A stretch of 64,000 nt of DNA from positions 1 to 64,000 of the forward strand of contig OY253668.1 of NCBI GenBank assembly GCA_958009085.1, in the 5' to 3' direction. A model generated the notes under the pieces. That model searched no databases, was not told the origin of the DNA, and worked only from the letters and a program-made list of their open reading frames with translations. The translations under genes were made by a program, and so were the position numbers. This document shows, piece after piece, positions 1,710 through 61,000 of this stretch (the first letter of the stretch is position 1; each line of letters starts with the position of its first letter). The DNA comes from Protoeuglena noctilucae (lineage: Eukaryota).

Positions 1710-3504
1710 ATGGGGATTCAGGCCGAGGCGGGGCTCTCCGCGTACTATCAGTCGAAAATCGAGCAGCTAGAGCTGCAGGCGAGTGGCGGGACACCTGCAA
1801 CGCCGAGATCCGGCGCCTGCCGCGCTGCGCGCGACCGTCCTCCGAACTGGGCAGCGCGAGGCTCCCTTCGGCCGCGCGGGCGCGGAGCCCATCTCGCGCG
1901 CCCTCTCTTTCCCTGCTCACGCGCATTGCTATCTCGCGGTGTGCTGTGGGCTGCATGAGGGTGTCCAGCGCGTCGCAACGACATGGTTTTGCCCGCCTCG
2001 TCTCGCGTTTGCAGGTGCGGGATCGCCTGCAGAACCTGCGCAGGCTGCAGGCGCAGCGCAATGACCTCAATTCGAAGGTCCGCTCGTTGCGGGAGGAGCT
2101 GCAGCTGCTGCAGCAGCCGGGGTCCCACGTCGGGGAGGTCGTCAAGGTGCGCTTGCGCGTCCTGCGCCGCTCTGTCCCTTCCGCCGCCCCGCCCGCCCAC
2201 TCGACACCCCCTCTTCCATTTCTCAGGTGATGGGTAAGAACAAGGTCCTCGTCAAGGTGCACCCGGATGGCAAGTACGTGGTGGACCTGGACCCCAGCAT
2301 CAAGATCGAGGGCCTCAAGGCGGGCACGCGCGTGGCCCTGCGCAACGACTCGTACCAGCTGCACTACGTGCTGCCCACCAAGGCAAGGCCGCGCTTGCGA
2401 GACCATGCTCGGCCCCGCTTCTGCCCCATGCATCGTTCACACGCCTGCCCGGCCCACCCCTCTCCCTTCCCCCAGGTGGACCCCCTGGTGTCTCTGATGA
2501 AGGTGGAGAAGGTGCCCGACTCCACGTACGACATGATTGGGGGGCTGGACAAGCAGATCAAGGAGCTAAAGGAGGTCATCGAGCTGCCCATCAAGCACCC
2601 GGAGCTGTTCGAGGCGCTGGGGGTGGCGCAGCCGAAGGGGGTCATTCTGCACGGGCCGCCGGGTGAGGGCGCGACGGTTCGCCGTCGTAGTCGAGAGTCG
2701 CATTCCATGGCATGCCACGTGCCCGTCGCGCACCTGCACTCTCGCACCCCCTTGCGCCCCCTCAGGCACGGGCAAGACGCTGCTGGCCCGCGCCGTGGCC
2801 CACCACACCGACTGTACCTTCATCCGCGTGTCGGGGTCGGAGCTGGTGCAAAAATACATTGGGGAAGGGTCCCGCATGGTGAGGGAGCTGTTCGTGATGG
2901 CCCGAGAGCACGCTCCCTCCATCATCTTCATGGACGAGGTGGACTCGATCGGCTCCGCCCGTACCAACTCCGGGGGCGGGGGCGGCGACTCCGAGGTGCA
3001 GCGCACGATGCTGGAGCTGCTCAACCAGCTGGATGGATTCGAGGCCACCAACAAGATCAAGGTGCTGATGGCCACGAACCGGCTGGACATCCTCGACTCG
3101 GCGCTGCTGCGGCCGGGGCGCATCGACCGCAAGATCGAGATCCCCAACCCCAACGAGGAGTCGCGCCACGCGATCCTCAAGATCCACTCGCGCAAGATGA
3201 ACCTCATGAGGGGGATCGACCTCAAGAAGGCGAGAGACGGAGTCGATGGGGTGTGCACAGCACTCTGCTCGCATGCTGGCATACTCTTACATGCGACCCT
3301 ACGCGCCAGCCGCTTTTGCAGATCGCGGACAAGATGACGGGCGCCAGCGGGGCGGAGCTGAAGGCGTGCTGCACGGAGGCGGGCATGTTCGCTCTCCGCG
3401 AGCGCCGCGTGCACGTGACGCAGGAGGACTTCGAGATGGCGGTGGCCAAGGTGATGAAGAAGGACACCGACAAGGACATGTCGCTCAAGAAGCTGTGGAA
3501 GTAG
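1710..3504 (+). CDS. RPT6: 26S proteasome AAA-ATPase regulatory subunit RPT6/PSMC5 (6 exons)
   Basis: Exons 1710-1778, 2015-2146, 2227-2382, 2476-2662, 2766-3229, 3322-3504; Walker [18 protein letters not shown]-terminus MSLKKLWK. Confidence 0.97.
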
Positions 3505-3553
3505 ATGGCGCACAGAGAGGCGCTGCTTGAAACGCACCGGCCGCTGCCCTATG

Positions 3554-6500
3554 CTATGCCCGCTGCACCTCGTCGCGCCGCACCACGGCCCGCACGGGGC
3601 CAACCTGCACCTCCACCCCCCGGGCACTCACGCCCACCACCTCGCCACGCCCCTTGAGCCTGGGCACCAGCACCACGTCACCCACGCGCGGCAGCCACTC
3701 CCGGGGAGGGGCAGACGGCGGCGGAGGGGCGGGGGTCGCTGCCTCAGTCACCCGAGCCCCAGCCGCGGCCCCACCCCCCAGCGCCGCCCGTGCCCCCCTC
3801 ACATGTGCCCCGATGGCACGCACGGCCCGCTGTTCCTGCGGGACAGGGCAGAGCAAAACGAAGTTTGCGCAATGTGGAACAGGTAGATTGCGGATTGCCA
3901 ACCCCTCCCCCTCCCTGCCACGCACCGCCTTGCGCCACTCGGCGCGCTTGGTCGCCTCTGCCGACGCCAGCAGCGCCCGCTCCTCCGCCAGCGCAGCCTT
4001 CGCTGCCTCCGCCTCCGCCTCGTCCTCCATGGCGCGCGCGCGCAGAGCCTCCAACTCTGTGGAAGGGAGGAGCGTGGGTAGCAGTCGCCTACACCCAGCA
4101 ACCCCTATCGCCGCCTCGCCAATCGCTGGCAACGCTTTGAGCAGCATAACTTGCCTGCCACCATGGCCCCCGCCGACTGGTGCGCGTCCCCCAGTCTCTC
4201 CCTCGCCGCCGCCACCACCCCCGCGTCCAGGCCCAGTCGCGCAGCGATGTTGACGGCGTTGCTGCGGCCAGGCACGCCCCACAGGAGGCGGTACGTGGGG
4301 CGCAGCGACACCTCGTCGAACTCCACCGACGCATTCTCGAACCTGGGGCAGCGAGAGGAGTGCAGCGTGTCCTGGCGATGCTCACGTGGCAGGGACAGGG
4401 TGCGCTGTTAAAACCCACGCAGTGTCTGCCGCCTCACCGATCGTCCTGGTACTTGAGGGACGTGAGTAGGGCCATGTGTGTGGTAGCCACCGTGAGTCCC
4501 GCCCCCCCCGGTCCCCCCGTGGCCATCCGCCTCAGCAGCGCCACCCCCAGGGCCGCCCCCTCGGCCGGGTCCGTGCCGGTGCCCAGCTCGTCCAGGAGCA
4601 CCAGGGACCGGTTGCCAGACTCGCATCGAAGCTGGTGGATGCGGCGCAGGTGCCCGGAGAAGGTGGACAGGCTGGCAGAGAGGCTCTGGGAGTCCCCGAT
4701 GTCGGCGTATACGCCCTCGAACCACGCAAGGCGGGCGGAGCGGGCGGGGACGAAGAGACCGGCCTGGGACATGAGCACCGCGAGGCCGAGCGCCTTCAGG
4801 ACGGCCGTCTTGCCACCGGTGTTGGGGCCCGTGATGACCACCGCGCGCGTGGGCAGACGCACCGTCACATCGCAGGGGACGGGTGCGGGTGGGGCGCCCT
4901 CTTCACCGTTTGAGGTGGGCCCGGACCCCGCATTCGGCCCCTCCTCCGCCGTCGGCCTCGCCACCCCCTGTTCCCGCAGCCGCGCCAGCAGTGACCGCTC
5001 CCCGCCCCCCGCAGCCGCCTGCTCGCTCCACCGCTTGTGCCTCGCGGCCAGGAGGGGGTGCCGCAGCAGCTGCAGCGCCAGGTAAGGCTCAGAGACGGCC
5101 TGCAAAAGCCAACAGCAGTGACAGTGAGCGTGGCAGCTAGCGCATCACCACCGCAGGCCACGTGCTCACTCCTGCTGCAACGCTTGCCCAGCCAGGGCAG
5201 CCACGGCGCCCCTTGCCTGTTTCTGCCCGGTCTTCCTGGCCTTGGCGACGGCGCGCCCCGGTATGCCCCCCCACTCGGCCCTCTCCGGCGGCACGCACAG
5301 CAGCCACCTCCCGAAGCGCGCCCTGGCACACGCGGCATCCAGCCACACGACGGCCTCCAGGCACTGGCGCACGCTGTCGGCGCTGCCCATCACCTGGCCG
5401 GACAGCGACCACTGCGAGTGCGGGGGGGCAGCAGTGGCTGGCATGCAAGGGGTGGAGGGCATGCAATGAGCACCGCCACTGCAATGGGGCCAACCAACGC
5501 ACCATGAAGCTCTCCTCTGCGTCCCTCATCTCCTGCACCGCCTCTACCAACTGGTTGTTCCCCGGCACGGCCGCCTGCGCGCATGGCTTGCGCTTGGGTG
5601 CATGTGGGGGCAGAGCAGCTGTGGTGGGTCGAGCGTCATCCACGCATGCCACCGCACCTGTGGCTCGAAGTAGACGACCCCCCCCGCGACGCTGCTCCCC
5701 AGCACGAGTCCCTTCCGCGCCGCCACTGCTCCCGCGTCCCCCGGCACTGCCAGGCACATGCGGCCCTTGTACTCGGTGACATCGCCCGACGCGCCCCGGC
5801 CACGCACCACCGACTCCACCCGGCCACGCAGGGTCTGCACGCGCACCCGCGCGGAGCTGCAGGCGGGATCGGAAGGGCCGCAGGTGGGGCGATGCGCGAG
5901 GGGCACCCCTGCACACCCTCCCACACCCGTGCCGACATCCGCAGCTGCAAGGCAGACGCGTCTGATCCCCACAGGTGAGCGAGAGACGAGAGCTGTGGTG
6001 AATCTCACCGGACCTCCTCCGATGCGGTGCTCTTGACCGCGCCATCCTCCTCCAGGGACCCCCGGATGCGCTCGAGCAGGTCAGGGCAGGTGGGCAAGCC
6101 CCTGCGAGAGAGGTAGAATGGGGGAACGATGGCGAGGGGGCCATGGGTGCGTGCACATCAAAAGCTGTGATGCACATGCAAAACATCGCCAGTCACTCCC
6201 TCCACCACCAGCAGCAGCCGCCTGCCCCTCACTTGAAGACGGCCTCCAGCGGACGCAGTGCCTGGTACGTGCGGCTCTCCACGCCTGCCTCACGCTTGAC
6301 CCGCTCCACCGTCGGAAGCACGGACCTGGGCGGAGGGCCATGGCATGCTTCCCCTATAGCTAGCATGGCTGCGGGCACGCCCAGCATCCACAGCACGTGC
6401 CATACACGAGCGCTGCCACTGTGCGCCCCCCGCCCGTCCCCACCTAGCGAGTCTCCCCGCCCCGGCCAGGACGGATGCCACCGCGAGCAGCTCCGCGCCG

Positions 6501-7033
6501 CTCAGCAGGCCCGCCGCCTCTGCCCGCCTCAGCGCAGGCACCGCCAGCCCCGTCTCCACACCGCCAAACTGCAGCGCCGCGCCGTGCAGCGCCTCGATCG
6601 CGTCCACCGCGACCGTCTCTGCTAAGAGCCCCTCCGCCTTGGCACTTGAACGACCCGGCAACATCCTCCGCACGGCCTCGCGGCCAGCGACGGTGGACGC
6701 AAAGCGCTCGACCTCCGCGCACAGCTCCCTCCAGCCCAGGACGTCCAACGCGTGGAGCGCTGCCGGGCCTAGATTATCCTCCTCGGCATCCGTGGCCAAT
6801 GGCGCCACGCCGCTGTCGCTCCCCTCGCTCAGCACGGACGCGGCTTGGACCCGCAGGAGCCCCCGACGCTCCGCGCGTGTAGTTCTCGGTCCCGTCGCAT
6901 GGTTGCAAGAATTCCACGACTTATGTGTAGCGGTCTGGCTAACTGGTCGCAGGTAAACACGCGGCGCGCGGCGCGGCGGGCACGATGTATGCCCGCTGCA
7001 ACACAGGCAGCCCCTCGGCGCGAGGGTTGTCAT
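3554..7033 (-). CDS. MutS2: Plastid-type MutS2 family ATPase (multi-exon), ending in a KOW-like domain
   Basis: Transit-like N-terminus; [71 protein letters not shown]-terminal [12 protein letters not shown]. Confidence 0.92.
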
Positions 7034-7387: not shown

Positions 7388-10222
7388 TCAGTCCATGCCT
7401 GCCAGAGGGTCCACAGCGGCCGACCCCGTGCCTGTGCCCGGCAGCGCCCCAGCGTGCGGGTCTGCCATCGCCAGCATGCGCTGCCGGTCGGCCTCCGCCG
7501 CCCGCGCCTTGTCCTGCTCCCCCCACGCCGCGTACACCTCCCCCAGCGTCGCAAAGTCCCTCGCCGCGTCCTCGAACCGACGCATGTGGCTGCGGGCCTG
7601 GGCGCGCCGCAGCACCGCCTTGGCCAAGGAGGCGCCGGCAGAGGACCCCGAATCCCAGGAACCCGGCGCACCCATGGCCACCAGCGCCGCCGCAGCGTCG
7701 CCGAACTCCCCGTCGGTGCCGGAGTCGTGGGCACGCTCGAGCCCCTCTGCCCGTGCCGCCCCGACCAGCGCCCCCAGCGCCTGCGTGCAGTCCTCCTCCG
7801 CCCGCCGCAGCCTGCGGGACACCCGGGAAGCGAAACGATTGTCGGCTCGCATGGAACCCCTGGCATGCAACCACCGCCCTCACGTGCATCGCCAGCCCCC
7901 TGAGCTTCTCACGCGTTGAGCTTGAGCAGCGCGGCGGCGCGGGCGACGAGTGCCGCGGCCTCGTCGACCCCCGACCCCCTCGCCGCCTCGGCTGCCACCC
8001 CGTACGCGTCAGCCGCCCCCTCCCAGTCCCCCGCTCGGAAACGACGCAGCCCCACCTCCATGACAGAAGACAGGTCCTGCGGACGCATCGTATGCATATA
8101 TGGCGTATGTGGAATTATAGCAGCAACCTTCAGCTCCACTGCCCCACTTCAACCACGTCCTCCAAACCACGTCCCACACTCCACCACTCCCTCTCACCTT
8201 CGCACCTGCGATAGCCCAGTCCCACTCCCCCACTCCCCTTCTCCCTCACCTGCGTCCCCCTGGCCATGGCCGCATCCTCCGCGGATCTCCGAATCTCCTC
8301 GTTTCCCGGGTCCAGCGCCAGGGCACGCTCCAAATCAACCAAAGCGCCCTCGGCGTCCCCCGACTGCGCGCGTGCCTGGGCGCGGCGGCACAGCACCTTG
8401 ACGGCCATGCGGCGCGACTTGGCAGCGGCACGCGCCTCCGCACCCCCCTCCCCATCGTCGGGCATGGGTGGCCCCGCGGGTGGGGGCGCCAGTGCAAGGG
8501 CACGGTCGCAGTCGGCCGCGCACTGCTGCAGCATGCCCAGCTGCAGGTGGCAGGCGGCGCGGTTGGCGAAGAGGGCGGCGATGCTGTCGTCGAGCTCCAT
8601 GGCGCGCGAGTAAGCGTTGACTGCAGGCCGGGTGGGGGAAGGGATTAGGGTGTCGGGCAAGGCGGACCAAAGGCATCGCGCTTGCAGCGGGCCCCTGCCC
8701 CTGTCCCGCGCTCTCTCTCACGTGCTGCTTGGTAGTTGCCCTTGCCGAAGAGAGCGTCTCCCTTGTCCTTCAGAAACATGGGCTGGCGCTCCGAGATGTC
8801 ATTGGAGGGCTCCGACGCACCGCCCTCGGCTGCCTTGCGACTGCAGACGACGACCACCATGGGGTAGCGATAAGACGATAACATAGCAAGATATCAGTGA
8901 CACGGCAATGCACTACCGCCCATGACTCCCCTGGCACGTCCCCATCGCTGCCATACCATGCCATGCCTGCATCTCTACACCACCAACCCCTCACCGGTAC
9001 TCTGCGATCTCCGCCTCCCGCTTCTCCCGCGCGGGCAGGTGGGGCGTCTGCAGCTGCGTAAACTCCACCGCCACCGCCTCCGCGCGCGCACGGGGAGGGG
9101 GCAGCGGGCGGAACGTGACCGGAGGGGCAGCCGCCTCGGTTCGCCCGTCACTCCCGACCGCCCCTTCCCTCTGCGCAGGGATGCCCTTTCCCCTCTGCCC
9201 CTCTTCATCTTCCTCTCCCTCGCCCCCCTCCACCACCACGTGTCGCCGGCTCCAGCTCTCCCCCTCCCCCTCCCCCCGCCCCTGCCCGGTGCCCCTCCAC
9301 CCCCGGCCGTGGTAGTCGGGGTGATCGAGCATGGGCGCATCCTCCTCTTCCATCACACCCGCACCCTCCTCCTCATCCTCCTCCTCATCGTCCTCATCCC
9401 CCTCCGCCCCACTCGGCAGCAGCCCCACCCGCCTCCTCTCTGCCTCCAGCTCCAACGCCTTCAAACGGTCCACCTCACGGCGCTTGGCAGAGTCCAGGTC
9501 GAAGGTCTGGTGGGTCAGGTCCTTCTCGTAACGCTTGCGCTCGCCCAGCTTCAGGCGACGAGCCTCCTGCGAGGGGTGAGAGGATGGGTGAGTGACGGAG
9601 TTGCTGCAACGATGCAGCAGGAACAGCGCCCTCGCTATACCACTGCGACGCAGCCACGACACGCACACGGCTGCATCGCATCGCCAGCTGTATCTCTGCG
9701 AATCTCTCGCCTCGATGCGCCTGTGTGCTGCCTCAATCGACGCCGCCCTTCGCTGCGCCAGGTCCTCCTTGGTCGCACCCTCGGCCGTCAGCCGGCCCCA
9801 AAGGCCAGGGGAGCGCTTGACCGCGCGGAAGGTGACGCCGCCCACGTCCACCGTCGCCGTCGTCTGCGCGTCGTCGATCTCGCCGTGCAGCTGCGGGGGG
9901 GGGGGGGGCAGGGAGGTGTGGGGGTGCATGGTGGCAGGCCCTGCCTGCCTGCCGACAATTGGGTGGCACTGCAGGGTCGCCCTCACGTCGGCGAGGAAGA
10001 AGTACGGCGGCGCATTGACTTTGAGCAGGCATTCCGTGGCAAACACGTCCACCCGGGCGCGAGGGACCCCCGGAGTGCGCACGGTCACTGCGGGCGAGGG
10101 ATTCCGAGGTGTTTTGGCAGGGATCTCGGGGCGGACGGGATCAGACGATATGCAGTATGATGTCATTTACCTGAAAGAAGGGTCTCGGACTCTTCCCACT
10201 CGAACGCGGGCGTCAGCGGCAT
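7388..10222 (-). CDS. DNAAF4: Dynein axonemal assembly factor 4 (DYX1C1/PF23): CS domain + coiled coil + TPR repeats
   Basis: Exon 1 MPLTPAFEWEESE; CS domain LKVNAPPYFFLADLHGEID; PPPR...VEFT...LPARE motif; TPRs FLKDKGDALFGKGNY and LFANRAACHLQL. Confidence 0.85.
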
Positions 10223-10345
10223 GGTGCACGCTTTGGTCCCCTGCTGTGCCGGGCCTCCGCGCTGTCGTGGGCCTGCGAGTGAAAGGAACACCCCGGCGTC
10301 GTCACTGATTTATAAACACATCAGAGCGTGCGTTGTTCACGCGAG

Positions 10346-10910: not shown

Positions 10911-13541
10911 ATGGCGGCAACGGCAGCCCTTGCGGCCCACCACGGGCGCGCGAACCAGCTTCCCAGCTGCCGCCCCGCCGCGCAATGCCCCAGTCGACCC
11001 GATGCTCGCGGTCCCGGGCAAAAATTGGAACGGACATGCAGGCGGACCTGTGTTTGTGGACGCGCGGCCGTCGGGGGCGCGGCGCCGGTGGGGTCCGTTG
11101 CCGACATGGGCGAGCTGCAGGCGTGGGTCGCGCGCTTCCCCGCCTCTCAGCAGGCGTGCGCCCTCACACCCGTGCGGTCAGCTTCAGGCGGCTGGGGATT
11201 GCGAGCAGACGGTCCTGTGAGTGCCGCAGCCCTCGCGTTGGGGGCGCACGCGCGCATGCAGCAGCTGCTGGCGCGTGCGGCGCCCCATCCACGCGCATCG
11301 GAGCTGACGTGCGCAGGTGTCTGCCGGGGAGCAGTTGGTGTGCGTCCCCCGCGCTGCCATGATGACTGTCGACACGGCCACCGAGTCCCCGCACAGTGGG
11401 GGGCTGGTGGACCGGGCGGGGCTGGGGCAGTGGCAGGCCATGTGTCTACATCTGCTGACGGAGAGAGCTGCGGGGGACGGCTCCCGATGGGCGCCCTACC
11501 TACGCTGTGAGGGAGCAGCGCGGGTTGCGATGCATGGCCCTTACCTGTCTTGTGTGCCTGGCCCCAACGTGCCCTCATCTGCACTCATTGGCAGTCTCGG
11601 GAATCATCATGTTCTCCCTCCCCCCAGGCCTCCCTGACCTCTCCGACCACCCCCTTCTGTGGGGCCCCGACCGCCGCGCGTGGCTGCGTGGGTCGCCCAT
11701 GCTGGCACGGCTGGAGGCGCGGCTGCAGAACGTGCGGGAGGATGCCGCGGAGTTGGTGGGCGCGGGCGCGAACGAACTGCCGGTGGCGCGGGGCGTGGAG
11801 GGGGGCCTGGTGACGGAGGAGTCGATGCGATGGGTGAGGGACCGAGGGATGGGGAAGGGCATTGGCGAGGGGGCGCGTGGCATGGGCGCAATCACTCGTC
11901 GCTTCCCTCGTCCTCGCAGGCTGCCGCCGTGCTGCTCTCCCGTGCCTTCTATCTGGCCTTTGATGACGACGCGGGTGCTGAGAGGACTTCCGGTGCGTGC
12001 GGGGGAGGCTAGGGCGGTGCAGCAGCGGGCACTCTGCGTGCGGGACGTGTTCGCGTTGCCTCGCACTGCGAAGTACCTCTGTGCTTGCGCAGGTGCGGTG
12101 GATGTGACGATGCCTTTGGACCGCTACGGCCCCGGTGCGGTGGACGTGGGCGCGGTGCTGGACGATGAGGCAGAGGCAGCAGGGGAGGAGTACATGTCAT
12201 CTCTGGATGGGGAGCCCCTGCACTCGATCGCCCTGGTGCCGTGGGCTGACCTGCTCAACCACAGGCGAGGGGCAGGGGATGCGACATGTTGCTTGGGTGT
12301 GGAGGCTGACTGGACAGGCGTTGCTGACGCAGCTACTATCCCTATTCCCGCAGCTCCTCGGCGACGGAGGAGGCCCTCCTGCGATTCGACCCCGAGGCGA
12401 GGGCAGTGTCTGTGACTCATGGGGCCTTCGATGGGTTATGATGGTTATGCTGCCTGCAGCTGTGGTGGCCCATGGGGTTGAGTCTCAGCTGCACACGGGA
12501 GTGCCTCCCTCCCTGCAACTTAGGTGGGTGCCCATGGTTATCTCAGCTGCAGTCGCCAGTGTCTCTTTCTCCGCAGACCCAGACGGCCGCGCTGCATGCG
12601 CACCGTGCGTATGCGGCGGGGGACGAGGTGCACGACTCCTACGGCCCCTGGCGCAGCGCGAGCGACCTGCTCCTCGACTACGGATTCGTGGACGCAGACA
12701 ACCGCAACGACTGGGTCGAGGTGCCCCTGGTGCGGCTGGCCAGGCCCCAGGCAAACGAGGCACGGGCCTTCTTTGCGGCTGCGGGGGGGATGCTCGACGA
12801 GCTGGGAGCGGTGTTCGACGCGGAGAGCGCGCCGGACGCCAACATCCTCGCGTGGGTGCGGTGAGGGCATCCGAGCAACAGCCGTCCCCTGCCTGGTTCA
12901 TATAGCGCCGTCCCCTCTCGGTGCCTTTCGCTGACCCTCTCGCCCTGACCCCGACCTCAGAGCCGCGGTGGCGACGGACGAGGAGCTGGCGTCGCTGGGG
13001 TGGGACGGCACGGGGGACGACGCAGACCAGCTGGCCTCTGCCCTCACGCTGACCGGCAACCTGGCGCGCCCCGTCAGGCGAGGGTGGCGGGCGCAGCGGC
13101 CGACCGCTGGACTGCGCCGCGCTGGCTGCGGTCACGGCAGTCTGAATCCTCCTGGTCACCTCTCACACCAGGCCCTGCGCTGCCACTCCCACCGCAGCCG
13201 TAGCAACGAGGCGCGGATGGCGGCGTCGCTGGGTGCAGCGCTGGAGGAGGTGGAGCGGGGATACGCGTCACGGCTGGAGGATGACGAGGACGAGTTGCGG
13301 AGTCTCGAGTGAGGGAGCAGGGGGCTGTGTGAAGATGCGGTGGGGAGACGGTACGCGAGTCGTGCTCTGATGGGCCCTGCGCTGCCGCCGCAGGGGCGAG
13401 GGGCGGGGCACGGGGCCGCGAGTGTCGACGCTCCGGGCGCTGGTGGCCGAGAAACGCGCCATCCGCGCCACCCTGGAGCGCGTCCAGGCGGCGGAGGAGC
13501 GTCTGGCCCAGAAAGTGAGGCTACAGGACGTGTGGGACTGA
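10911..13541 (+). CDS. SET-domain protein lysine methyltransferase, Rubisco LSMT-like, probably plastid-targeted
   Basis: GWGLRA, SRWAPYL, AAAVLLSRAF, ALVPWADLLNH, EVHDSYG...LLLDYGFVD; C-terminal LSMT substrate-binding-like helices. Confidence 0.88.
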
Positions 13542-44900: not shown

Positions 44901-45188
44901 CGGCGCGGTGGAGGACTCGGCACTCCCCAAGGAGTGGCACCCTCTGCGCGCGGTCAGCGGCGGGAGGGGGCGCTATAATGGACCTGCCGCCGGGGCATTC
45001 CACGCATCGATATCCAAACAGCTCCGAGGCGCGCGGGCAAGGCGGGAGCCTGCCTCTCGCCTCCCCGGGGCCCCTTTCCGAAGTCCCCATGGCTGTCTTG
45101 CACTGTTCAGGTACCTCAGCCGAGGCCTGCCCGAATGAGGGGATCTAAAATGCGCACAAAAGCGCGCGGGGGGCGCGAGCGCCCTCAT
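35938..45188 (-). CDS. DDL: Plant-type double-module D-alanine--D-alanine ligase with a transit peptide and N-terminal SAP-like repeats (spans the assembly gap; 3' end either 36412 or 35938)
   Basis: [57 protein letters not shown]; second module [30 protein letters not shown]...[16 protein letters not shown]. Confidence 0.88.
39804..40003. other. Assembly gap (200 N) inside the DDL gene
   Basis: Run of N. Confidence 0.99.
40703..41083. repeat. Intronic repeat: about 113-bp tandem duplication plus four copies of a 39-nt exon/donor junction
   Basis: ctcacccctctcggtRtcaaYcacgatgcacgtgaactc at 40744, 40857, 40945 and 41045. Confidence 0.9.
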
Positions 45189-47690: not shown

Positions 47691-49763
47691 TCAACTACCC
47701 CCCTCGCCCCCCGCACCATCCCCCTGCTCCTGACCCCCGTCGTCCCCCGCACTATCCCCCTGCTCACCCTCCCCACCCTGCCCGCGCTCCCGTCTCTTGG
47801 CCGCTTTCGCTGCCCGCTGCGCTTCCCTCACGCGCTTCTTGAGCTCGGCCTCAGTGACGCCTTTCCACACCGGTCTCCTGGGCCATGACGCCTCCCTCTG
47901 CCGCATGACCTGGCTTGGGGGCTCCGGGAGCGGTGGCAGCGAGGGGTGCGCCAGGCACAGCTCCACCAAAACCCACACGGAGCACCCCTGGAAGACCAGA
48001 GACGCGGCCCACTGCGAGGGTCGAGCGGAGTGGCACACGGTCATGGTCACACGCGCAACGTGCATTTGCGTCAGCCGCCCCTCCTTCCATGTAACTGGGA
48101 CGGCGAGCATTACAGTAGCCTCACCAGGGTGTTAAAGGCGGGGATGCCTTGGAACTCGACGCAGTAGGCGACGGCGAGCCACGCGGCCTGGGACGCGGCC
48201 CACGCGAGGGCGGCGTGGACGGCACGCGAGGGCAGGGCCGGGGCGGCGGTGACGGCCATGGGCAGGAGGGAGAGGAACCACACAAAGTACTGCGCGGTGG
48301 AGACGCGGTTGAGTGCGACGAAGGCGGCCGCCTGAGCCGCCATGGCGAAGGGGGGGTCGGCGTGGAAGCGTGCGCCGAGGGCGGCGACGGCGGTGAGCTG
48401 GGCGACGGGGAGGGCGGCGGCGGCGAGGGGGGCGAGGGAGAGTGCGGGGGAGGCGGGGGCGCGCGCGGCGAGGGAGAGGCGGAGGTAGGAGGGGAGGAAG
48501 GCGGGTGCGAAGTTGTGGCGGTGGTCGAGGCGGGCGGCGTGGTGGAGGAAGGCGTGGAGCAGGAAGGGCGTCCCCTGCCACGCGAGGCACAGGGCCCTGC
48601 GGAGAGTCGCAAGAGCAGGCTTGTATACGTCAAGGAAGGGTGCCGCTTTTGCAGGTCACGCATGGCATTGCAACGTGAGTGTCGGAAGGACGGGGCTCAC
48701 CCGGCGGCGAGGAATGCCGCGACTCCCGAGGCTGCCAGCGTGATGGTGCGGGCGTTGAAAACCCGACGGGGACCGCGGAGGTCTGCGCAACGGACGATTT
48801 AAAGGGAGTGATTGCGGTTTAGGCATCTGTGACTGTGACTGCGAGCATGTGATGGCTGCAGAGGGGGTGGCCAAGCGCAGCAGCTCTCTTAACACACACA
48901 GGCACTCACGCTGGCCCACGTGCAGCGCCGCGGGGAGCAAGAAGGCGGCAGGGTAGATGCGCCAGTGGGCCGCCAGTCCCAGGAGAGCGCCACAGGCGAG
49001 GTGGGCGCCCCTGTCCAAGCAAGCCAGGGCCCTGAGGACAGAGGATTAGAGAAGATTGTTCAGTTACAGTTGAGGAGCCACTCAGTGGGAGCAGGGTGGG
49101 GACAGGTACATCTCGCAGTCACAGGGCATGTCTCAACATGTCTCTGCCTCACCCGTAGATCATGACGGCGACGAGGCTCTCGCCGTTCCCTCGCGTGGAT
49201 ATCGCGGCAGTGTAGGGGTTGAACAGCCACGCCGCCACCGCTGCCTTGCGCGCCCCGAGACCCGAGCCGCGCTTGGGCAGGGCGGCGTCCAGCATCACGG
49301 CGACGAGGATGTCACACGCTGCGGTGGGCATCGCGACTGCTGTGTCAGTCCAGCACTGCTGCGCCTGCAGGCCCCTAGCACAGGTCCCAGCTGCAGCACG
49401 CGCACCTGAGAAGAGCAGCTTTCCGAAGGGCGGGATCCAGACGTTGGGGATTAGCAGAGCGGCGAGGAGGGGCGTGTAGCGGTAGGTGGCGCGGTCGTAG
49501 GGAGAGCGCCCGGCCGCGAGATGGCGGGCGGCATCCGTGAAGACCCTGGGCGAGGCAGGGAGCATGCGTGCGCGTGAATGCGCGTCCTCCGAGGCCACCA
49601 TCGCGCAATTGCGACACAAATGGACTCGCCTGTAGTCCACATCGGTGTATTTGACCTCCAACAGCGCGTCCTGCGCCTGGCCCCAAATAACAAGTGCCAG
49701 CCGCAGCAGCGCGCCGATCCAGAGGAGTTGCTGCGGGTTAGAAGTTAGAGAATTTGTTATCAT
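47691..49763 (-). CDS. PIGM: GPI mannosyltransferase I (PIG-M/GPI14)
   Basis: VKYTDVDYRVFTDAA, SPYDRATYRYTPLL, WLFNPY...STRGNGES, HWRIYP, RLDHRHNF, NRVSTAQYFVWF. Confidence 0.92.
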
Positions 49764-50036: not shown

Positions 50037-53000
50037 GCTTGGGAGAAGATCACATCGCGTGCATTCTGTTCGGCTGAGGGCCGCTCAAGACGACCAACTC
50101 AGGGAGTACCCTTCTGGCAGAGGTGTCTCGACGCGCCCAGCGCGAACCACGCCGTCGAAAACACGGAGGACTGGCGCTACAAAGTTACAGATCCGCTCTT
50201 CAGGCGCTTGTGCCCGCTCGAGTGCACGAGTCGGCCGCAAGGTTCTCCGCACTTTTTGTCCAGCTCGCCGCGCTCGTCGAACGCCCTTGCACGCCACTCT
50301 GCGTGCCGCTCAATCCCCGGGTCAAGAGGCTTCAAAAGCTTGCTCGGCCGTGGTCCTATCCTCGCGATGCGGCCCACAGCTTCCGACCCCGGCCTGGGGG
50401 CTCTTGCGTCCGAAGACGACGCCCCCGCGCCCAGGCGAGCCGCGCGGGGCTCGCCTCTGTGCGCCGATTGCATCTTGATAAAAGCCAAATGCGATCGCGG
50501 TGGCGTCCTTTGCTCCGCAGCGGGCGGCACCGGCTCGTCAAGCGCGCCCTGTCGCGGAGCCAGCTCTCGGGCACCGGGAAGCATTACGCGCACGCGGAGC
50601 CGTGGTACGCGGTGGGAGACATGGAGAACGACGACGAGAGCGAGACTCTCAACATGAACTGGCGCTTCATGAGGCAAGCGAAGCGCGCACGCTGCCGTGC
50701 ATGGCGCACGGGCGAGAGAGTTGTTCTTTTTTGACCCGCGCGTCGCCGATCGATCTCCGCAGCGACTCCCTTCGCGAGGACTCGACGCCGGGCGCCCACA
50801 CCGGGCGCAAAGGGGCATGGAACCACGCACACGCGAACGGCAAGGCCCGTGGTTCCTTCGTCCCCCCGGATAACCTGCCCCCGCGCCTGGGCATCATGGA
50901 GCTGGTGAGAGCGAGGGTGTGGGTGTCAAAGCCAGCAGGAATGGGGCAGCAGATTGCGAGTGTCAGAGGGCGCAGCGAGTCACCACGGGCGGTGCTTGGT
51001 GGTGTGGTTGACGCCATCGGTCACTGCCCCTGCAACATACCTGCCTCCGCCGCAGCTCACCTGATATCGCTCTCACTTGCCTCCCCCAGGCCCGCGTCAT
51101 CGCCAGCGAGGCCCTGGTCCCCGCCTGCACGGCCGCCAACGTCGCCACGGCCGTCCTCGCCCTCCGCCGCCCCTGGGCCGCCCCGGGCACCCGCCTGGCC
51201 CACGCACAGGGCGCGGTGGGGGCGGCCGTGGCGCTGGCGCTCGCCCTGTCCATGCGCGCGCAGGCCATGGCGGGGGTGCTGCTGAGGCTGCCGGGGCTGG
51301 ACTGGGCAGCGGCGGCCGCCCATGCGGTGGCACCCGCCCTCGACCGACTCTGCCAGGCGAGAGGGGTGGGGTGAAGCGGATAGGGTTGCATGGTTGACTG
51401 TCATGCGTGGTTGTTGCGGTGCTTGATCTGGTGCTGACGACGCTGCTGTCAGCCCGACGCGCACCAGCGCTCTTGGTTTGTTTGTACCAGCACACACGCA
51501 CCCCCAGCTACAGCCCACCCACCCCTTCCCGTCTCGCAGAAGTGCGCGGTGGGCGACCTGCCCGTCAGCCGCGTGCTGTCCGGGTGCATTTCATGGCCGC
51601 TGGGCCTGGCGGGGCTGGGCGTGCGGTGGCTGGCGCGGGCGGTGGTGACGGGGGCGGCGGCGTGGGTGGCCGCGCCCTTCGCACCGCTGGCGCAGCTGCG
51701 GGGGTGCGCGTGGCACGTCAAGGCGAGCGGGAGGGGGCGAGTGGCTGTGGTTGTGGTTGCGTTCGCGATTACCACCCCTAGGTTGCCACGAGTCATATTA
51801 TGACTCCCTCCCCACTCGTTACCGATTCCAAGCCCACCCTGTTATAATTGCAGAATGTGCTGGCGGACCTGACCGTGCACCGTGGCCGCCGCGCCGCCCT
51901 CAGCTCCGTCAAGTCCCTGGCGTTCCGATGCATGAGGGCATACGCGGCGCTCATCGAGGTGACGTATGGGCACTTGATGAAGCGTGACGTGATACCCGAT
52001 CCATCCCCCTCAACCACCATTGCCACTCTCATTCCCCCCCCCCCAGTCCCCTTCCCTCTCCCACCCCTCACCCCCCACTCACCCCCACCCCCCGTCCCTC
52101 CCTCCCCAGTCCCTCCCCCTGGCCGTCGGCTCCTCTGCCCTCCTGGCCCTGTCCCTCGCCTCCCACGCCCCCCCCGGCGTCCCAATCGCCCTCGCCGCCA
52201 CCGCCGCCCTCAACGCCTGCCGGTGGGTCGCGGAGAGGCGTGCCTGGGGCACTGGGGGTCGACTGATGCGGGTGGTGGCGGGGTGGCGGATGGCGAGCCT
52301 GGCCGTGCCCGACGAGGACCTGCCCCTGCTGCACTACGCGGCCATGGTGAGAGAATGGGTGTGATGTGGATGATGTGTGATGTGATATGCACTACGCAGC
52401 CATGGTGAGAAGTGATGAGAGGGTTACGACAGATAGATGTGAGGGAGATGCACAGTGTGGGAGTGCAGTGAGGTGTGGTGATGGAGTCTTATATTCCCAT
52501 CAGTACCATCGCCTTTCCTGTCACCTCGCAGCTGCCAGACACGGAGTCCCTTCGGCTGGTGCTGGAGGAGGGGGTGGCGGAGAACACGAGGGACGCGCGG
52601 GGCAGGACGGCCATGCACCTGGTGGCGAGCAGGGCAGAGGTGAGGGGGGGTGATGGTTGATGGTTGATGAGACACGGCCATGCACAGCAGTGGCAGAGGT
52701 GAGAGGGTGGTGGTGGCGGGTGTGGTAAACGTCAGACTGCCATGCACAGTGGGGGTCGCGAGAGGCAGGGCCGCCGTGTGATGAAGACAGCAGCACCTAT
52801 GCACTAGACAGGCACGCGTCGCGACGTGCGAGCGTGGCTGCGTCTGCCCATCATACACCCCCCGTCATTATCATTGTAACAATAAACTGATGGTAACAAT
52901 ATACTTCGTCGCGCTCCCTGTCCCGCAGCTGGGCTGCTCCGATTCCAGGGCCGTGGACCTGGTGGTGGACGAGGGGCGGTCGCTGGCCACGCAGATGGAC

Positions 53001-54864: not shown

Positions 54865-57718
54865 ATGCGAGGGATGGAGCGAGGCGGTTGCGCCCTGGGC
54901 GCGCAGGGCCGGTCCACGGGCCACACGGGCCTGCGAGCCGCCCCGCAAGCGGCAAGACGGCTGCTGCACAAGACTTTTGCGGCCTCTGCGAAGAAGAAGC
55001 CAGAAAAGGTCCCGCGAGTGGGTGTCGCAGCCCAGTATCGGCTCCCCCCGCGCCCCGACACCCGCGGCTGTGCCCGCGCAGTTCGGGCAAGCGCGCTTCG
55101 CCCTCCGGCTCCCGCAGGTGGAAGACGACGGATTCGCGGATGAGGTCCTGTCCGTCCTCTCTGGCCTCCGTGCGGAGCGCACTACCGTAACCCGAGGGCC
55201 GGGCGGACGGAGCCCGAAGTCCCGGCGTCCCACCAGCGTCTCCCGCGGCCCCGGCGCGGCCGGCGTTGATGTCGTGCGGGGTCCTCGCGACGCCATGGCG
55301 GTGTCGCGCACCGATTACGAGGCGTTGGACGACGACGGCGTCGTGCGTGACGCGCGGATGGTGGACTTTGGCTTCGGGTCCGTGCCCGACGGCGCGGCCG
55401 GGGCCGCCGGTTTCGACTCCCGCGCGATGCTAGATGAGGCTTGGGACAACGAAGAAGAGGCGGAGGACGACGACGGCGGGGCGGCGGTGTTCTACGTCCC
55501 GGACGAGGACGACGACGACGTGGATGCGGACGAGGGCCGCGCGGGCGGCGCGGCGGACGACTGGCGCGGCTACGAGGAGGGTGCGGACTTCACGGATGAG
55601 TGGGAGAGTCTCCCGGGTCCCGGCGAGCGCTCGCGCCGCGGGGAGTCGCGGTCGAGCGTGTCGATCGAGGTGCGGGCGTTTGACTCCGCGATAGTGTCGG
55701 TGAAGGCGGGCGACGGGGGCAACGGGTGCGTGGCGTTCCGTCGCGAGAAGTACGTCGAGTTCGGGGGCCCCGCGGGCGGCAACGGCGGCCGCGGCGGGAG
55801 CGTGTGGGTGGTGGCGGACCCGGGGCGCGGCTCGCTGCTGCACTTCCGGCGGCAGGTGCACTGGCGCGCGGGGGACGGGGGCGCGGGGTCCGGGTTCAAC
55901 AAGACGGGCGCGGGGGGCGGCGACGTGGAGATCCCCGTGCCCCTGGGGACGGTGGTGCGGCGGAGGGGCGACCCGGACGACGCGCCCCCACTGGCGGAGA
56001 TTCTGGCAGAAGGGGACCGGGCGCTGGTGGCGGCGGGGGGCCGCGGGGGCCGCGGGAACGCGTCGTTCAAGTCGAACCGGAACCGGGCGCCGCTGATTGC
56101 CGAGAAGGGCGAGCGGGGGCAGGAGCTGTGGCTGGCCCTGGAGATGAAGGTGGGTGGGGGTGGGTGGGTTGTGATGAAGTAACACATGAGGAGCAGTGGG
56201 TGGCTTAGCGAGTAAGGCATAGGGCTGTGGCACCCTGCATGCGACACCGCTAGCGTCGGTCCCATCCGGTGTCACGCCTTCGGCAGCCCTGTCTCACAGC
56301 CAGCCTTGGCTTTGCCAAGCGATGGAATGCCCTCGTCTTCTCCCCGCAGGTGGTGGCGGACGTGGGCATCGTGGGCGTTCCCAACGCGGGCAAGTCTACG
56401 CTTCTGTCGGTGCTGTCGGCCGCGCGCCCCAAGATCGCCAACTACCCCTTCACGACCCTCGTGCCCAACCTGGGCGTATGCGAACTCGACATGCGCACCA
56501 CCGTCTTCGCGGACATCCCGGGGCTGCTCGAGGGGGCGCACCTCGGTGAGGAGCGCTTTGTGATGGACAGGAACAGATACTGATGTGCAATGGTGCATGT
56601 TGTATAGTGCGCCTTGGCAGCGACTTTCACACGTACAAAAGAGCACAGATGCGCATTCGGGACATGGCTACCTTGCGCAGATGGTATCCCATTCACACCA
56701 GCCCTCTGCCAACTCCCCTCTCGCCTTCCACCCTGCAGGCCGTGGGCTGGGCGTGCAGTTCCTGCGGCACTGCGAGCGCGCCCGGGTGCTGGTGCACCTC
56801 GTGGACGGCACTTCGCGCGATCCGATCCACGACTACCACGCCATCAACGCCGAACTGGAGCTCTTCTCTCCCGAGCTGGCGGACAAGCCGCAGCTAGTGG
56901 CGTACAACAAGGTGGACCTGCCGGACTCGGGCGATTTCTACGATCTCGTTTGCGAGCATTTCGAGGGGCTCGGGCTGCCGAAGCCCGTGGCGGTGTCGGC
57001 GGCGACGGGGCAGGGCGTCGTCGAGTTGGGTGAGGCGCCAGGGATATGTGCAGCTGGGCGCAGCGCCTGCTGACTGGAGAGCAAACTTGCGATGTTAGTT
57101 TGCAACTCCAACCGGCACATCAGGGCTGCGCTCCTGTGTCTGTCGCCCTGGCCCGTCCGCACCCACACAGTAGGCAAAAACTCCCTCCCTGCACTCCGTT
57201 GTCCTTCCCTGCAGTTCGGGAGGTGCGCCGCCTGCTCGACAGCCTTCCCGAGGAGTGCGAGGAGCGGCGCGTGGAGAACGTTACGCGCGTCCCGCGAGAC
57301 CGCAGCCGCGTGGACGATTACCGCGTCGAGAGCTCCGAGAGGGGCCCCGGCGGGGCCCGCTTCGTAATCCGGGGAGAGGCCTTGGAGCGATTCACACAGA
57401 TGACCACTTTCGAATACTTCGAGGGCCTCCTGCGCTTCCAGAGGCGAGGCGCTGGGCATAAAATGCCCGGACATTGCTGCCGGGCAGCCGCTTCTCGCTT
57501 CCAGTTGCTCTGACATTCTCCTTTTTGCTCCGCGCGACAGGGTGTTGGAAGCGGCGGGCGTCGTGGACCGCCTGCGCCGCGAGGGCGTCCAGGCGGGGGA
57601 CACGGTGGCGATTGGGGACGTGATGGAGTTCCAGTGGAGCGACGACCGCTCCCACGGGGCGCTGTACGAGGCATGGAGGAGCCAGCGCACGGTGGTCCGC
57701 CCGTACGCTCGCGGATGA
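54865..57718 (+). CDS. OBG: Plastid Obg/CgtA GTPase with C-terminal OCT domain
   Basis: [75 protein letters not shown]. Confidence 0.94.
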
Positions 57719-58002
57719 CGGAAGACCGACTGGCTTGCATCCGTGCGACTGGCACCGCCAGCGCGGCCTCGATGCAGGGGATATTTGCTCGGCAGTGTCG
57801 CTGTTCTGTTGATGCTTCCATGATTATACCGTCGTGCCTAACGTGGCTTCGATCAGGTCCACGATCTGCGCAAACGGCGCTTGGATAGGCACTCTGCCCC
57901 GTCCTGGACCGGGCGTCGCCTCTCTACGAGGGCTCCGTCGAATGATTTAAAGCTCTCCTGTCGTGAAACGTTTCCCGCGCCCCGTCAAAGCGGCGGGTCA
58001 CG

Positions 58003-61000
58003 ATGGCGGAGCAGCGATTGAGGTCCGTGCGCCGGAGCCGGCAGCGTGGGCCGAGGCCTCGTCATCGGGGCCTTGGCTGCGACCGGGGGACGTGCGCCGT
58101 TGCTACCCGTGCGCGCTGACGTCGCTCCTGGACACCGCGTGACGCGGGCGCGCCAGTTCCGTGTCTGCAGGCGCAAGGTCACCGTAACCCTTCCGATATG
58201 TGACAGCTCGCAACACTGCGCTTCCGTGGACGCCCTGCGGATATCCCCCGGTGGGTCCCTGCCATCCGCGGCGTCGCTCGGCCCTCGAGCGCGTCCCGCG
58301 GGCCGAATGATAGGCCCCCCTGCCTGACCGCCGCGCGCCCCGCTCCCTCAGACGGCCGTCATCTGTTCTCCGCGTCGCGGGACTCCACCATCAAGCGATG
58401 GGTACTCTCGCCCGGCGAGGGGGATGCGGAGGAGGAAGAGTCGCGCCACCCGCGGCACGAGTCGGGGGAATTTGGAATGGAGATGGACGCACTGTCGCCG
58501 CGGACGCCGCGGAACGTTGCAGACGACGAAAGCGCAGGTATGCGCAGCACCAGAAGGGCTGCGGACGCGAGAGGACGTCGCGCGCGGGGTGAGAGACGAC
58601 GTTGCTTTGTTGCTGCGCCCTGCACGCCCCGCGCCCCGCTCCTCCCCGCAGCCGGCCCGCGCTTCGAGGCTTCGTTCGAGGGTCATTCCGACTGGGTCAA
58701 CGACTGCTGCGTTCTCGAGGATCTCCTCGTCTCCTGCTCCTCGGATTGCACGGGTGAGGGTGGGCGCGATGGGCTGTGTGGGTGGTGGTGGTGGTGTGAC
58801 TGCGACCGAGCGTATGTTCTCATCCCCCACATCATCATCCTCTCCCCGCCCCCTCGGCCCCCCCGCAGTGCGGTGTTGGAAGGCGGACGCAGCCCCGACT
58901 GCAGCAGGGACCGTCGCTTGCCTTCACACGCTCACGGGCCACAGTGACTTTGTGCAGTGCCTGGCAGCGGCACCTGCCGCGGCAGCGGTGGTCAGCGCGG
59001 GGTGCCTGGGGGAGGTGTTTGTGTGGAACCTGGGAGGGGACATGCGGGGGGTGGCCATTGGTGAGGGGAGGGGGGGCGTGGTGGGTTGCGTGTGAGATGA
59101 GGGGCAGAGGCTGAATGAGGTTAGGGAATTGGGAACGCGGGACAAGTGTTGCAGCTGCCTCCGGGTATCTGTAAGGCGTTGCATATGTACACGACACTCG
59201 ACTCGTCGCGTGCGTCAGAGTGCGACGCTGCCAACACCTGCCCCCCTCTCGCAGGAGGTGGCTCTGCGGCTGCGCAGGGCGGTCAGCGCCACAGCACATA
59301 CGCGGTGGACTGCACAGCGAATGCAAACACGGTGGCGACGGGGAGCACGGCGGGGGGCGTGCGGGTGTGGGACGCGCGGTCGGGTCAGATGACGCACGAC
59401 CTGCAGCTGCACACGGGGAACGTCAGGGCGATCCAGATCAGCGCAGATGGGCAGGTGAGAGAGGGGGAGGAGGGGTGTATGGGTGTCACTCGCAGCATCC
59501 CCATCCCCTGATCAACCCCCTCCCCTCCCCTGCAACTGCACACCCCTCACCCCTCACCCCTCACCCTCCCACCCCTCAGATGCTCCTTTCCGGCGGCGCC
59601 GACCGCACCGTGCGTCTCTGGGACCTGGGCCAGCACCGCTGCGTGGGCACCTACGTCATGCACGCGGAGTCCGTGTGGGGCATGCACGCCGACGAGCATC
59701 TGTCAGAAGTGATCAGTTGGGACAGGGGCGGGTGCGTGTTTCGCACCGAGGTGGCGTCGGGCGACCACGCCCTGCTCGTGCGGGAGAGGGGGGCCGTGCA
59801 CGCGCTCGCCGTGCAGGTGAGGGGTAGGGGTGTTTGGGGGGTGTCCAGCGGTGGGGGTGGATGCGTGTGTCTGTGGGTGTGTTTGGGTATGGGTGTCTGG
59901 AAAGCCAAAGCACTTGACTTCCCCATCCCCTTACCACCTCTGCCCATTGTACACCCCAATTGTGCACCCCCCCACTCTCTCCCCAATGCAGTCCCCCTCC
60001 CCCTCCCCCGACTGCGAGCTGAGCCTCTGGACGTCGTCAGTCGGATCCGACATACGTAGATGGGACGTGCCTGCCCCCGGCACCCACCCCGCGCGCCGAC
60101 CGGAGTCGGCATCACGGTCTCCCTTCGCGCGGTCGTCGCCGCTGCTGGCGGGGCACTCCAGGGCAAGGGGTGAGTGGTTGGGGTTGCAATTGGAATGGGT
60201 GGAGATGGAGGATGATAGCGGGTGGTAAGAAGCGTGGGGGGTTTGTTAAAAAGGGTGGGGCACTCCAGGGCGAGGGGTGAGGAGAGAAGGGGAGGGTGGG
60301 AGTGAGAGGGTGCGGGGGCAGGGGTGCGAGAGCGACTCAATTCCCATCCCCCTCCACCACCACCAACCAACCCACTCCTCTCCATCCCACTGTACCCCTC
60401 AACCACTCCCCCCGCACCCAACGCAGGCGAGTCCGTGCGTGCCCCCGCGGCCGTCGCCCGCCCCTCCCTGGAGATCCGGGGAGTGCCCCCCCTGACTCGG
60501 TTCCGCGTGCTGCCAGACAAGCGACACGTGCTGACTCAGGACCTGACGGGGTCGCTGTCGCTGTGGGACGTGGCCCTGGGGCAGCCGGTGCGGGCGTTTG
60601 AAACAGGGACGCCCTTCGACGCGCAGTACAGGCGAGGGGAGATGTGTGTGCGTGTGGGTGTGTGCCGAGGGGTTAAAGAGTGGAAGTGTAATGCATGGAT
60701 GTTCGTAAATGTCAGCCCTTCCAATCACATCCACCCCTCACCCCACCCCACCCCACCCCTCACCCCTCACCCCCTCACCCCCACCCCCCCCCTCACCCCC
60801 AGAGAGCTCTTCGAGCCGTTGATGGTCGCCTCGTGGTTTCTGGCAGACACGAAACTGGGATGCCTGTCATTGACATTGGACCCAGCCACGTGCTTCTCAG
60901 CTGAGGTGTATGCATTGGATGTGGGGCTGTCTCACCATGCCGAGGAGACGAAGCTCAACTTCGGGGGGCAGGTCGTCGCGGGGGCGTTTGATGCGTGGGC

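Follow-up and report, generated by a model that had tools for sequence, protein, structure and literature searches.

GC-AG introns with an AG/GC(G/A)AG donor are frequent in a 64-kb, GC-rich window of Protoeuglena noctilucae

In animals, fungi, and plants, about 98% of introns are GT-AG and about 1% are GC-AG (PMC7072748, PMC3167603), and GC donors far above 1% have been described in GC-rich marine algae. In the haptophyte Emiliania huxleyi, 56-65% of donors are GC, which was verified by reverse-transcription PCR and attributed by the authors to a genome G+C content of ~65% (Feldmesser et al. 2014, PMC4028052); gene prediction that favours GT is reported to produce mis-annotations in this alga (PMC4028052). 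In the pelagophytes Aureococcus anophagefferens and Pelagomonas calceolata, the predicted GC-AG fractions are 14-17% and ~14%, respectively, and were likewise attributed to high G+C, while a relative with lower G+C has 0.32% (bioRxiv 10.1101/2024.10.30.620910). Here, we investigated GC-AG introns in the first 64 kb of contig OY253668.1 of Protoeuglena noctilucae (hereafter the window; 66% G+C overall, 61-70% in 4-kb bins, one run of 200 N), in which an earlier note made from the sequence had listed 21 introns with a GC donor.

Our analyses confirmed that GC-AG introns exist in the window and that exons are joined at these bases, as shown for three sites by transcript-derived protein and for ten by homology. 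For the window as a whole, we arrive at a best estimate of 21-24 GC-AG introns out of ~129-131 (16-19%), 13 of which are externally supported. We consider it likely (probability of roughly 0.75) that they are ordinary U2-type introns, enriched in DNA of 66% G+C and tolerated where the rest of the donor matches the consensus. Since fractions of 14-17% (pelagophytes) and ~60% (E. huxleyi) are already in print, the novelty implied by the earlier note was too high. GC-AG-rich splicing in GC-rich algae is known, and the window adds to the haptophyte and pelagophyte cases one from the green lineage, as judged by its RPT6 protein, which is nearest to green-lineage proteins over its full length (best match 90%, Botryococcus 86%, land plants ~84%). 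We accordingly take the source to be an under-sampled marine alga of this lineage. A literature search that covered few subscription journals and no supplementary tables found no report of a comparable GC-AG frequency in a green alga.

The window resembles E. huxleyi, as described, in that a GC-rich marine alga has GC donors far above 1% while keeping the AG acceptor; it differs in that ~16-20% of its donors are GC and GT is dominant, whereas GC is the majority in the haptophyte, and in that its RPT6 points to the green lineage. Its GC-AG fraction falls in the same range as that given for the pelagophytes, which are, however, stramenopiles with 0.14-0.9 introns per gene, compared with ~7-8 introns per gene here (127-139 in 17 genes). 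Ordinary U2-type GC-AG introns, as they are described, share its termini, its donor consensus with a T-to-C change at +2, and its compensation elsewhere in the donor, but the frequency in the window is 10-20 times higher and the dependence on A at -2 and G at -1 appears near absolute.

Inspection of the donors showed that, at all 21 noted coordinates, an exonic AG is followed by a GC whose G is the base listed, exactly as had been claimed. The donor text is GC[GA]AG in 20 of the 21 and GCACGT in the remaining one (32229), and for every donor the partner AG acceptor lies 84-236 bases further downstream; GC...AG termini are thus found in all 21 introns, as well as in two additional ones (Table 1). 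The GT consensus, obtained from 105 predicted donors, is (C)AG/GTGAG, which 20 of the 21 GC donors match apart from +2. All modelled introns end in AG, with a C-rich tract followed by GCAG as the consensus, under a gene finder that permitted AG acceptors only. The U12-type donor motif (/RTATCCTT, as given in PMC2846911) was sought through its TATCC core, which is absent from 23/23 donors, and U12-type introns were accordingly ruled out. Sequencing error was also ruled out, because 21 T-to-C errors falling exactly at +2 would be implausible and every sampled word is present in the DNA runs.

Table 1. GC-AG introns of the window. A slash marks the exon-intron junction; drop, loss of gene-finder score when the donor is barred.
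Gene and intron	Coordinates	Strand	Donor	Length (nt)	Phase	Support	Remark
RPT6, intron 1	1779..2014	+	CAG/GCGAGT	236		P0015 exact across junction; drop 8.5 nats	
RPT6, intron 3	2383..2475	+	AAG/GCAAGG	93		P0015 exact across junction	
RPT6, intron 5	3230..3321	+	AAG/GCGAGA	92		P0015 exact across junction	
MutS2/Smr	4057..4154	-	CAG/GCAAGT	98	1	homologue alignment	
MutS2/Smr	5100..5216	-	CAG/GCAAGG	117		ab initio	absent from earlier note
TPR	9567..9710	-	GAG/GCGAGA	144		ab initio	
SET-domain-like	12265..12353	+	CAG/GCGAGG	89		P0002 gap-free	upstream of 14-residue micro-exon
SET-domain-like	12397..12576	+	GAG/GCGAGG	180		P0002 gap-free	downstream of micro-exon; in-frame stop if retained
SET-domain-like	13078..13197	+	CAG/GCGAGG	120	2	P0002 gap-free	
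ZIP transporter, last intron	15821..15927	+	CAG/GCGAGG	107		ab initio, drop 9.2 nats	
RRM protein, first intron	18957..19079	-	CAG/GCGAGC	123		ab initio, drop 8.0 nats	
HCF101-like	21174..21310	+	CAG/GCGAGC	137		Pfam ParA continuity; drop 11.9 nats	
Beta-helix protein	27690..27823	-	AAG/GCGAGG	134		ab initio, drop 5.7 nats	in-frame stop if retained
Homoserine dehydrogenase	31283..31425	-	CAG/GCGAGC	143		NCBIfam NF006959 gap length	after 26-residue mini-exon 31426-31503
Homoserine dehydrogenase	32056..32229	-	GAG/GCACGT	174		NF006959 continuity	weak donor
SAP + double D-Ala-D-Ala ligase, putative first intron	44889..45060	-	GAG/GCGAGA	172		weak	
SWEET, last intron	45935..46058	-	AAG/GCGAGC	124		ab initio	absent from earlier note
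PIG-M (GPI mannosyltransferase 1)	49546..49629	-	CAG/GCGAGT	84	2	solved chain 9wno_A; drop 12.5 nats	
Ankyrin protein	50674..50762	+	GAG/GCAAGC	89		ab initio	in-frame stop
Ankyrin protein	51357..51539	+	CAG/GCGAGA	183		ab initio, drop 6.7 nats	in-frame stop 15 nt in
Ankyrin protein	51723..51853	+	AAG/GCGAGC	131		ab initio, drop 4.8 or 8.4 nats	in-frame stop
Obg GTPase	57444..57540	+	GAG/GCGAGG	97	2	profile continuity	
WDR48-like	60632..60802	+	CAG/GCGAGG	171	2	human WDR48 chain 5k1c_B; drop 8.1 nats	

The 21 sites fall into four tiers of support: (i) transcript-derived protein at three sites (1779, 2383, and 3230); (ii) continuity of a homologue, profile, or solved structure at ten (4154, 12265, 12397, 13078, 21174, 31425, 32229, 49629, 57444, and 60632); (iii) the ab initio model at seven (9710, 15821, 19079, 27823, 50674, 51357, and 51723); and (iv) weak support at one (45060). 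The earlier observation was thus confirmed, with external support at the 13 sites of the first two tiers; seven sites are carried by the model and 45060 is weak.

Transcript-level proof comes from RPT6. This gene contains five introns, three of them GC-AG and two GT (donor/acceptor 1779/2014, 2147/2226, 2383/2475, 2663/2765, and 3230/3321), and its exons (1629-1778, 2015-2146, 2227-2382, 2476-2662, 2766-3229, and 3322-3501) were translated as one protein. When a single RPT6 exon was used as the query, four proteins matched it at 100% identity along its length; they stem from metatranscriptome contigs of 1.4-1.85 kb in the JGI and Logan collections. One of these, P0015 (419 residues including a translated 5' leader, from contigs of ~1.42 kb), is contained without a mismatch in the spliced RPT6 translation, which bears out the earlier assignment of three GC-AG introns among five; P0013 and P0016 differ from the translation by one residue each and P0014 by six. 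As the codons of P0015 span 1.86 kb of genomic DNA but its contig measures 1.42 kb, the 604 intron bases cannot be in the contig, and all four transcript-derived proteins are fully spliced. Moving the junctions by one base would leave the mRNA identical but give GG-CA or CG-GG termini. Further, the Pfam OB domain ends two residues before donor 2383. Among sampled words of 1700-11699, the share found in four RNA runs from one marine metatranscriptome study was 0.25-0.48 (0.42-0.48 in three of them), compared with 1.00 in the DNA runs of one species label; 31-mers wholly within modelled exons make up 0.465, the value to be expected were nothing but these exons present. As a count of sampled words, this share is an indirect measure of splicing. 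RNA run X5, which held only a small share of the words, was given no weight.

Ten further sites are supported by homology. In the MutS2/Smr gene, the junction at 4154 aligned without gaps in all four homologues tested (P0125, P0154, P0124, and P0130), and retention of the intron would introduce an in-frame stop; the MutS2 search returned the window's own genomic open reading frame and relatives at ≤72% identity. Three sites reside in a gene that we take to be SET-domain-like, a label that reflects our impression of its homologue P0002 and not a tool output. P0002 (606 residues, 73% identical) is gap-free over the junctions at 12265 (ADLLNH/SSSATEE against ADVLNH/ASDATED), 12397, and 13078 (NLARPV/SRSNEARM against SLETPI/SVENETRM). 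The exon search for this gene found relatives at 73-75% identity, with no transcript from the organism itself among them. A 14-residue micro-exon (12354-12396, plus strand), backed by the P0002 alignment, has a GC-AG intron on either side.

Profiles and solved chains gave comparable continuity in four other genes. In the HCF101-like gene, the ParA match reaches profile position 106 with two residues of the upstream exon still to come, so that this exon would end at ~108, and the first residue of the downstream exon is position 109. The PIG-M junction at 49629 lies within the conserved stretch YTD(V/I)DY-VF(T/N)DAA, where the upstream exon extends to residue 40 of 9wno_A, codon 41 is split, and the downstream exon starts from residue 42. 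For the WDR48-like gene, coordinates on 5k1c_B are continuous across 60632 within one residue (~408 vs 409). With donor 57444 and acceptor 57540, the Obg protein is continuous both in TIGR03595 (positions 37 and 38) and in Pfam DUF1967 (38 and 39), whereas acceptor 57504, which the gene finder chose for this donor, would insert 11 residues.

The homoserine dehydrogenase gene contains two sites, 32229 and 31425, at which homology overruled our gene finder. At 32229, the finder favoured a GT donor four bases downstream (32225), which, joined to acceptor 32040, stays in frame but deletes positions 608-612 of NF006959; with donor 32229 and acceptor 32056, NF006959 is continuous from 606 to 607 and its score increases from 44.4 to 56.1 bits. 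The use of nearby GT donors in place of GC, as seen by RNA-seq, had been named earlier as a refuting outcome; here, with a GT only four bases away, homology favours the GC. Compared directly, the 32229/32056 form keeps a conserved ATCGAG stretch and the 32225/32040 form drops five profile positions; the two intron forms at 32040-32229 (minus strand) could be alternative splicing or a gene-finder trap. At 31425, NF006959 stops at 707 and resumes at ~735 in the flanking exons, leaving 27 unfilled positions for the 26-residue mini-exon; the support for this site is that length fit, with an ab initio drop of 1.2 nats, and the mini-exon by itself had no match among the NCBIfam models.

We next turn from single sites to frequency, which was estimated with a codon model trained on the window and a dynamic-programming gene finder whose donor matrix was built from GT donors only, with +2 left free. 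With equal priors, the finder recovered 20 of the 21 noted sites and placed a total of 139 introns, of which 41 have GC donors, in 17 genes. Under priors against GC of 1:1, 10:1, 100:1, and 1000:1, GC donors numbered 41/139, 32/136, 24/129, and 17/127, respectively (29%, 24%, 19%, and 13%), the severest prior already losing the transcript-proven donor 2383; the resulting 127-139 introns agree with the 100-140 estimated beforehand. Decoy donors at the same four priors numbered 33, 20, 7, and 4 for GG and 22, 11, 5, and 3 for GA, and nine of the 12 decoys retained at 100:1 have a GC donor, placed by the parse with the same penalty, no more than ~75 bases away, indicating that GT donors do not satisfy the finder at these introns. 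Barring the noted GC donor costs 5-12.5 nats at 16 of the 20 recovered sites (the other four being 50674, 51723, 45060, and 31425), and GC calls outside the noted list mostly cost <4 nats. Moreover, the coding score is negative inside all 20 recovered introns, positive after the acceptor in 19 (the exception, 57444, having the finder's wrong acceptor), and positive before the donor in all but 45060; 12 of these introns have lengths that break the reading frame, and of the eight that preserve it, three contain an in-frame stop. Relative to a 2.1% expectation taken from Chlamydomonas reinhardtii, 13 externally supported GC donors among ~129 introns give a binomial p of 3.8e-6. At least one GC intron occurs in 15 of the 17 genes when the two homology-supported homoserine dehydrogenase sites are added to the 100:1 parse.

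The heptamer AGGCGAG occurs in genic DNA in 26 sense and 13 antisense copies; being this common by chance, the motif alone proves nothing, and a site-by-site test is needed. Among sense copies, AGGC[GA]AG serves as a donor in 24/31 and AGGT[GA]AG in 15/22, as compared with 44/72 for [CGT]GGTGAG and 0/44 for [CGT]GGCGAG. AG/GC[GA]AG is therefore used about as reliably as AG/GT[GA]AG, and GT donors manage without A at -2. A model-free switch test, which scores a coding-to-noncoding change within 60 bases either side of the heptamer, was positive for AGGC[GA]AG at 12/31 sense and 2/17 antisense copies (Fisher p = 0.09). It was positive for AGGT[GA]AG at 11/22 sense copies, for [CGT]GGTGAG at 27/72, and for [CGT]GGCGAG at 2/44, the last differing from AGGC[GA]AG with a Fisher p of 4.6e-4; the controls AGGG[GA]AG and AGGCG[CG]G gave 3/17 and 2/33 (together 5/50).

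A tolerated C at +2 would account for these donors as follows. T-to-C changes at +2 may be frequent owing to the 66% G+C, and a C there would be kept only with AG before the junction and G/A, A, and G at +3 to +5, that is, as AG/GC(G/A)AG. The intact consensus would make up for the single mismatch with U1 small nuclear RNA (snRNA), selection would remove the C unless the site is otherwise perfect, and the consensus suggests removal by the U1/U2/U4/U5/U6 spliceosome. Compensation of GC 5' splice sites by a stronger match elsewhere is described in humans and other organisms (PMC3167603), and genome G+C is reported to correlate with splice-site G+C (PMC7072748). We therefore read these introns, whose donors equal the GT consensus with a C at +2 and depend on AG, as standard U2-type introns that probably arose by GC-biased change. 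The suggestion, made before our analysis, that strong pairing at -2/-1 allows such change to persist at +2 fits all measurements, including AG at -2/-1 in 23/24 GC donors and 35/105 GT donors of the 100:1 parse.

Several points weigh against this reading. The AG-dependence seen in the penalised parse is partly circular, in that the penalty selects strong sites, and the switch test alone avoids this; 8 of the 21 sites stand without external support; and donor 32229 (GCACGT) is poor at +4, so compensation is not absolute. GC donors are also unevenly spread, with three of five in RPT6 and none or one of 25-26 in the D-Ala-D-Ala ligase (Ddl) gene, nor could the GC introns of the window be told from the GT introns by acceptor score, intron G+C, or length, so that a simple model of local mutation pressure is without direct support. 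Further, the 16-19% holds for this window, and taking it as typical of the whole genome would be an extrapolation. The genome of C. reinhardtii is about as GC-rich as the window, and its donor consensus is similar. The expressed sequence tag survey of that alga counted 532 GC-AG against 25,053 GT-AG introns, or 2.1% (PMC2846911 Table 2), so G+C content alone does not force many GC donors. C. reinhardtii resembles the window in its many short introns (PMC2846911) but differs from it in this low GC-AG fraction, and a green alga of high G+C need not, on the published figure, have many GC donors.

In a different mechanism, of a kind also proposed earlier, 5' splice-site recognition itself would be altered, through the 5' end of U1 snRNA, U1C, LUC7, the U6 ACAGAG box, or PRP8; +2 would be read less strictly, and the GC donors would follow from this alteration and not from mutation bias alone. 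The equal use of AG/GC[GA]AG and AG/GT[GA]AG heptamers (24/31 vs 15/22) and the weak consensus of the supported donor 32229 both fit such a change, as does a window fraction ~9 times the 2.1% of Chlamydomonas, a genome of similar G+C. GT nevertheless remains the majority donor, nothing measured requires altered machinery, and standard U1 pairing with a single mismatch would predict the observed pattern, namely AG at -2/-1 in nearly all GC but a third of GT donors and no use (0/44) of GC sites that lack A at -2; the publications on GC-AG-rich algae, in the text available to us, do not attribute the trait to altered machinery. We therefore regard altered recognition as unlikely. A bolder version, in which a green-lineage spliceosome became indifferent to T or C at +2, given A at -2 and G at -1, through a change in U1 snRNA, U1C, U6, or PRP8 and not by mutation pressure alone, is just as doubtful; if true, it would explain the ~9-fold excess over Chlamydomonas.

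Less probable still is that selection keeps GC donors as regulated, slower sites that promote intron retention or alternative splicing. GC donors are described as splicing more slowly in other systems (PMC3167603), E. huxleyi is reported to combine many GC donors with much intron retention (PMC4028052), and the GC 32229 and GT 32225 donors, with their different acceptors, would give isoforms differing by a conserved five-residue stretch. Against regulation, the GC introns are spread across housekeeping genes such as RPT6, PIG-M, and Obg, with no functional pattern among the 15 of 17 genes that carry them, and every transcript-derived RPT6 protein was fully spliced. The view that most of the sites are chance AGGCGAG matches, with nearby GT donors or coding stretches in their place and a true GC-AG fraction of 1-2%, would draw on the 13 antisense copies of the heptamer, on at least one false GC call by the equal-prior finder (11873, where the true donor is GT 11834), and on the many extra calls with a drop <4 nats, in addition to the eight noted sites that lack external support. 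It is refuted for the 13 sites with transcript or homology support, GC was favoured at 32229 despite the neighbouring GT, and 17/127 donors are GC even at a 1000:1 prior, with the binomial test against 2.1% pointing the same way; as a general account, it is very improbable.

With tolerated GC donors as the preferred explanation, a gene finder limited to GT would miss or misplace about one in five introns and affect 15 of the 17 genes in the window; the homoserine dehydrogenase gene was itself mis-modelled by our finder until corrected by homology. When this genome and related metagenomic bins are annotated, AG/GC(G/A)AG donors should be permitted with a prior near 0.2. The window is also useful for working out how 5' splice sites compensate, since it supplies a natural contrast in which GT donors accept any base at -2 and GC donors do not.

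Among the sites carried by the gene model, the intron at 9710 shows a drop of 5.6 nats, or 14.3 with all nearby GC donors barred, together with a coding switch. Similarly, the drop at 50674 is 0.3 nats but 13.5 once nearby GC donors are barred as well. At 15821, an in-frame stop lies 33 nt into the intron, and the Pfam Zip match extends to 292 of 323 positions, ending two residues before the donor; the last ZIP exon, beyond this intron, had no external match, and two ZIP exons searched against solved structures returned nothing. An ankyrin-gene exon searched against representative proteins matched only the window's own read-through frame (P0243) and two unrelated proteins, weakly, and neither the ankyrin nor the ZIP gene had a relative among the metagenome contigs when their exons were used as queries. 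At 45060, the drop is 3.3 nats and the putative upstream exon has a negative coding score.

The earlier list was not the full set of GC donors, as it lacked at least two likely ones, both on the minus strand and both retained under the 1000:1 prior. Of these, 46058 shows a drop of 11.6 nats, while 5216, which lies outside the reach of the homologue alignments, shows a drop of 2.1 or 7.0 nats. Four extra GC donors predicted ab initio are retained at 100:1, namely 7471 (CTG/GCGATG), 23921 (CAG/GCGCGG), 27043 (CAG/GCGAGA), and 50435 (CAG/GCGAGC), and would, if true, raise the count to ~27. GC calls with a drop below ~4 nats, such as 11873, 3578, 25520, 53419, and 57711, were rejected; the first of these is false, since homologue P0002 shows a GT donor at 11834.

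The window holds about 17-18 intron-rich genes, packed at ~3.5 kb per gene. Pfam identified RPT6, a MutS2/Smr protein, a TPR protein, a ZIP transporter, an RRM protein, an HCF101-like iron-sulfur protein, and homoserine dehydrogenase, as well as a SAP + double D-Ala-D-Ala ligase protein, SWEET, PIG-M, an ankyrin protein, Obg, and a WDR48-like protein. An Rfam scan of the window gave no matches and thus no snRNA gene. The window starts with a (CCCTAA)n array, perfect for ~170 bases and then degenerate up to ~345, which marks a chromosome end whose repeats are of the TTAGGG type; in many green algae and plants, the telomere is of the TTTAGGG type instead. RPT6, the first gene, begins ~1.3 kb inward of these repeats. 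Its stop codon (3502-3504, plus strand) and the end of the MutS2 frame (~3557, minus strand) are only ~50 bases apart, and the convergent 3' untranslated regions of the two genes probably overlap. Of the 25-26 introns in the Ddl gene (34063-45090, minus strand), all or almost all are GT-AG; the gene occupies the lowest-G+C part of the window (61%), has longer introns with C runs before the acceptors, and contains the 200-N gap (39804-40003). In a gene of unassigned product at 23488-25749, a run of ~20 G directly follows a predicted GT donor (24440-24473, minus strand; GTGAGGGG...G).

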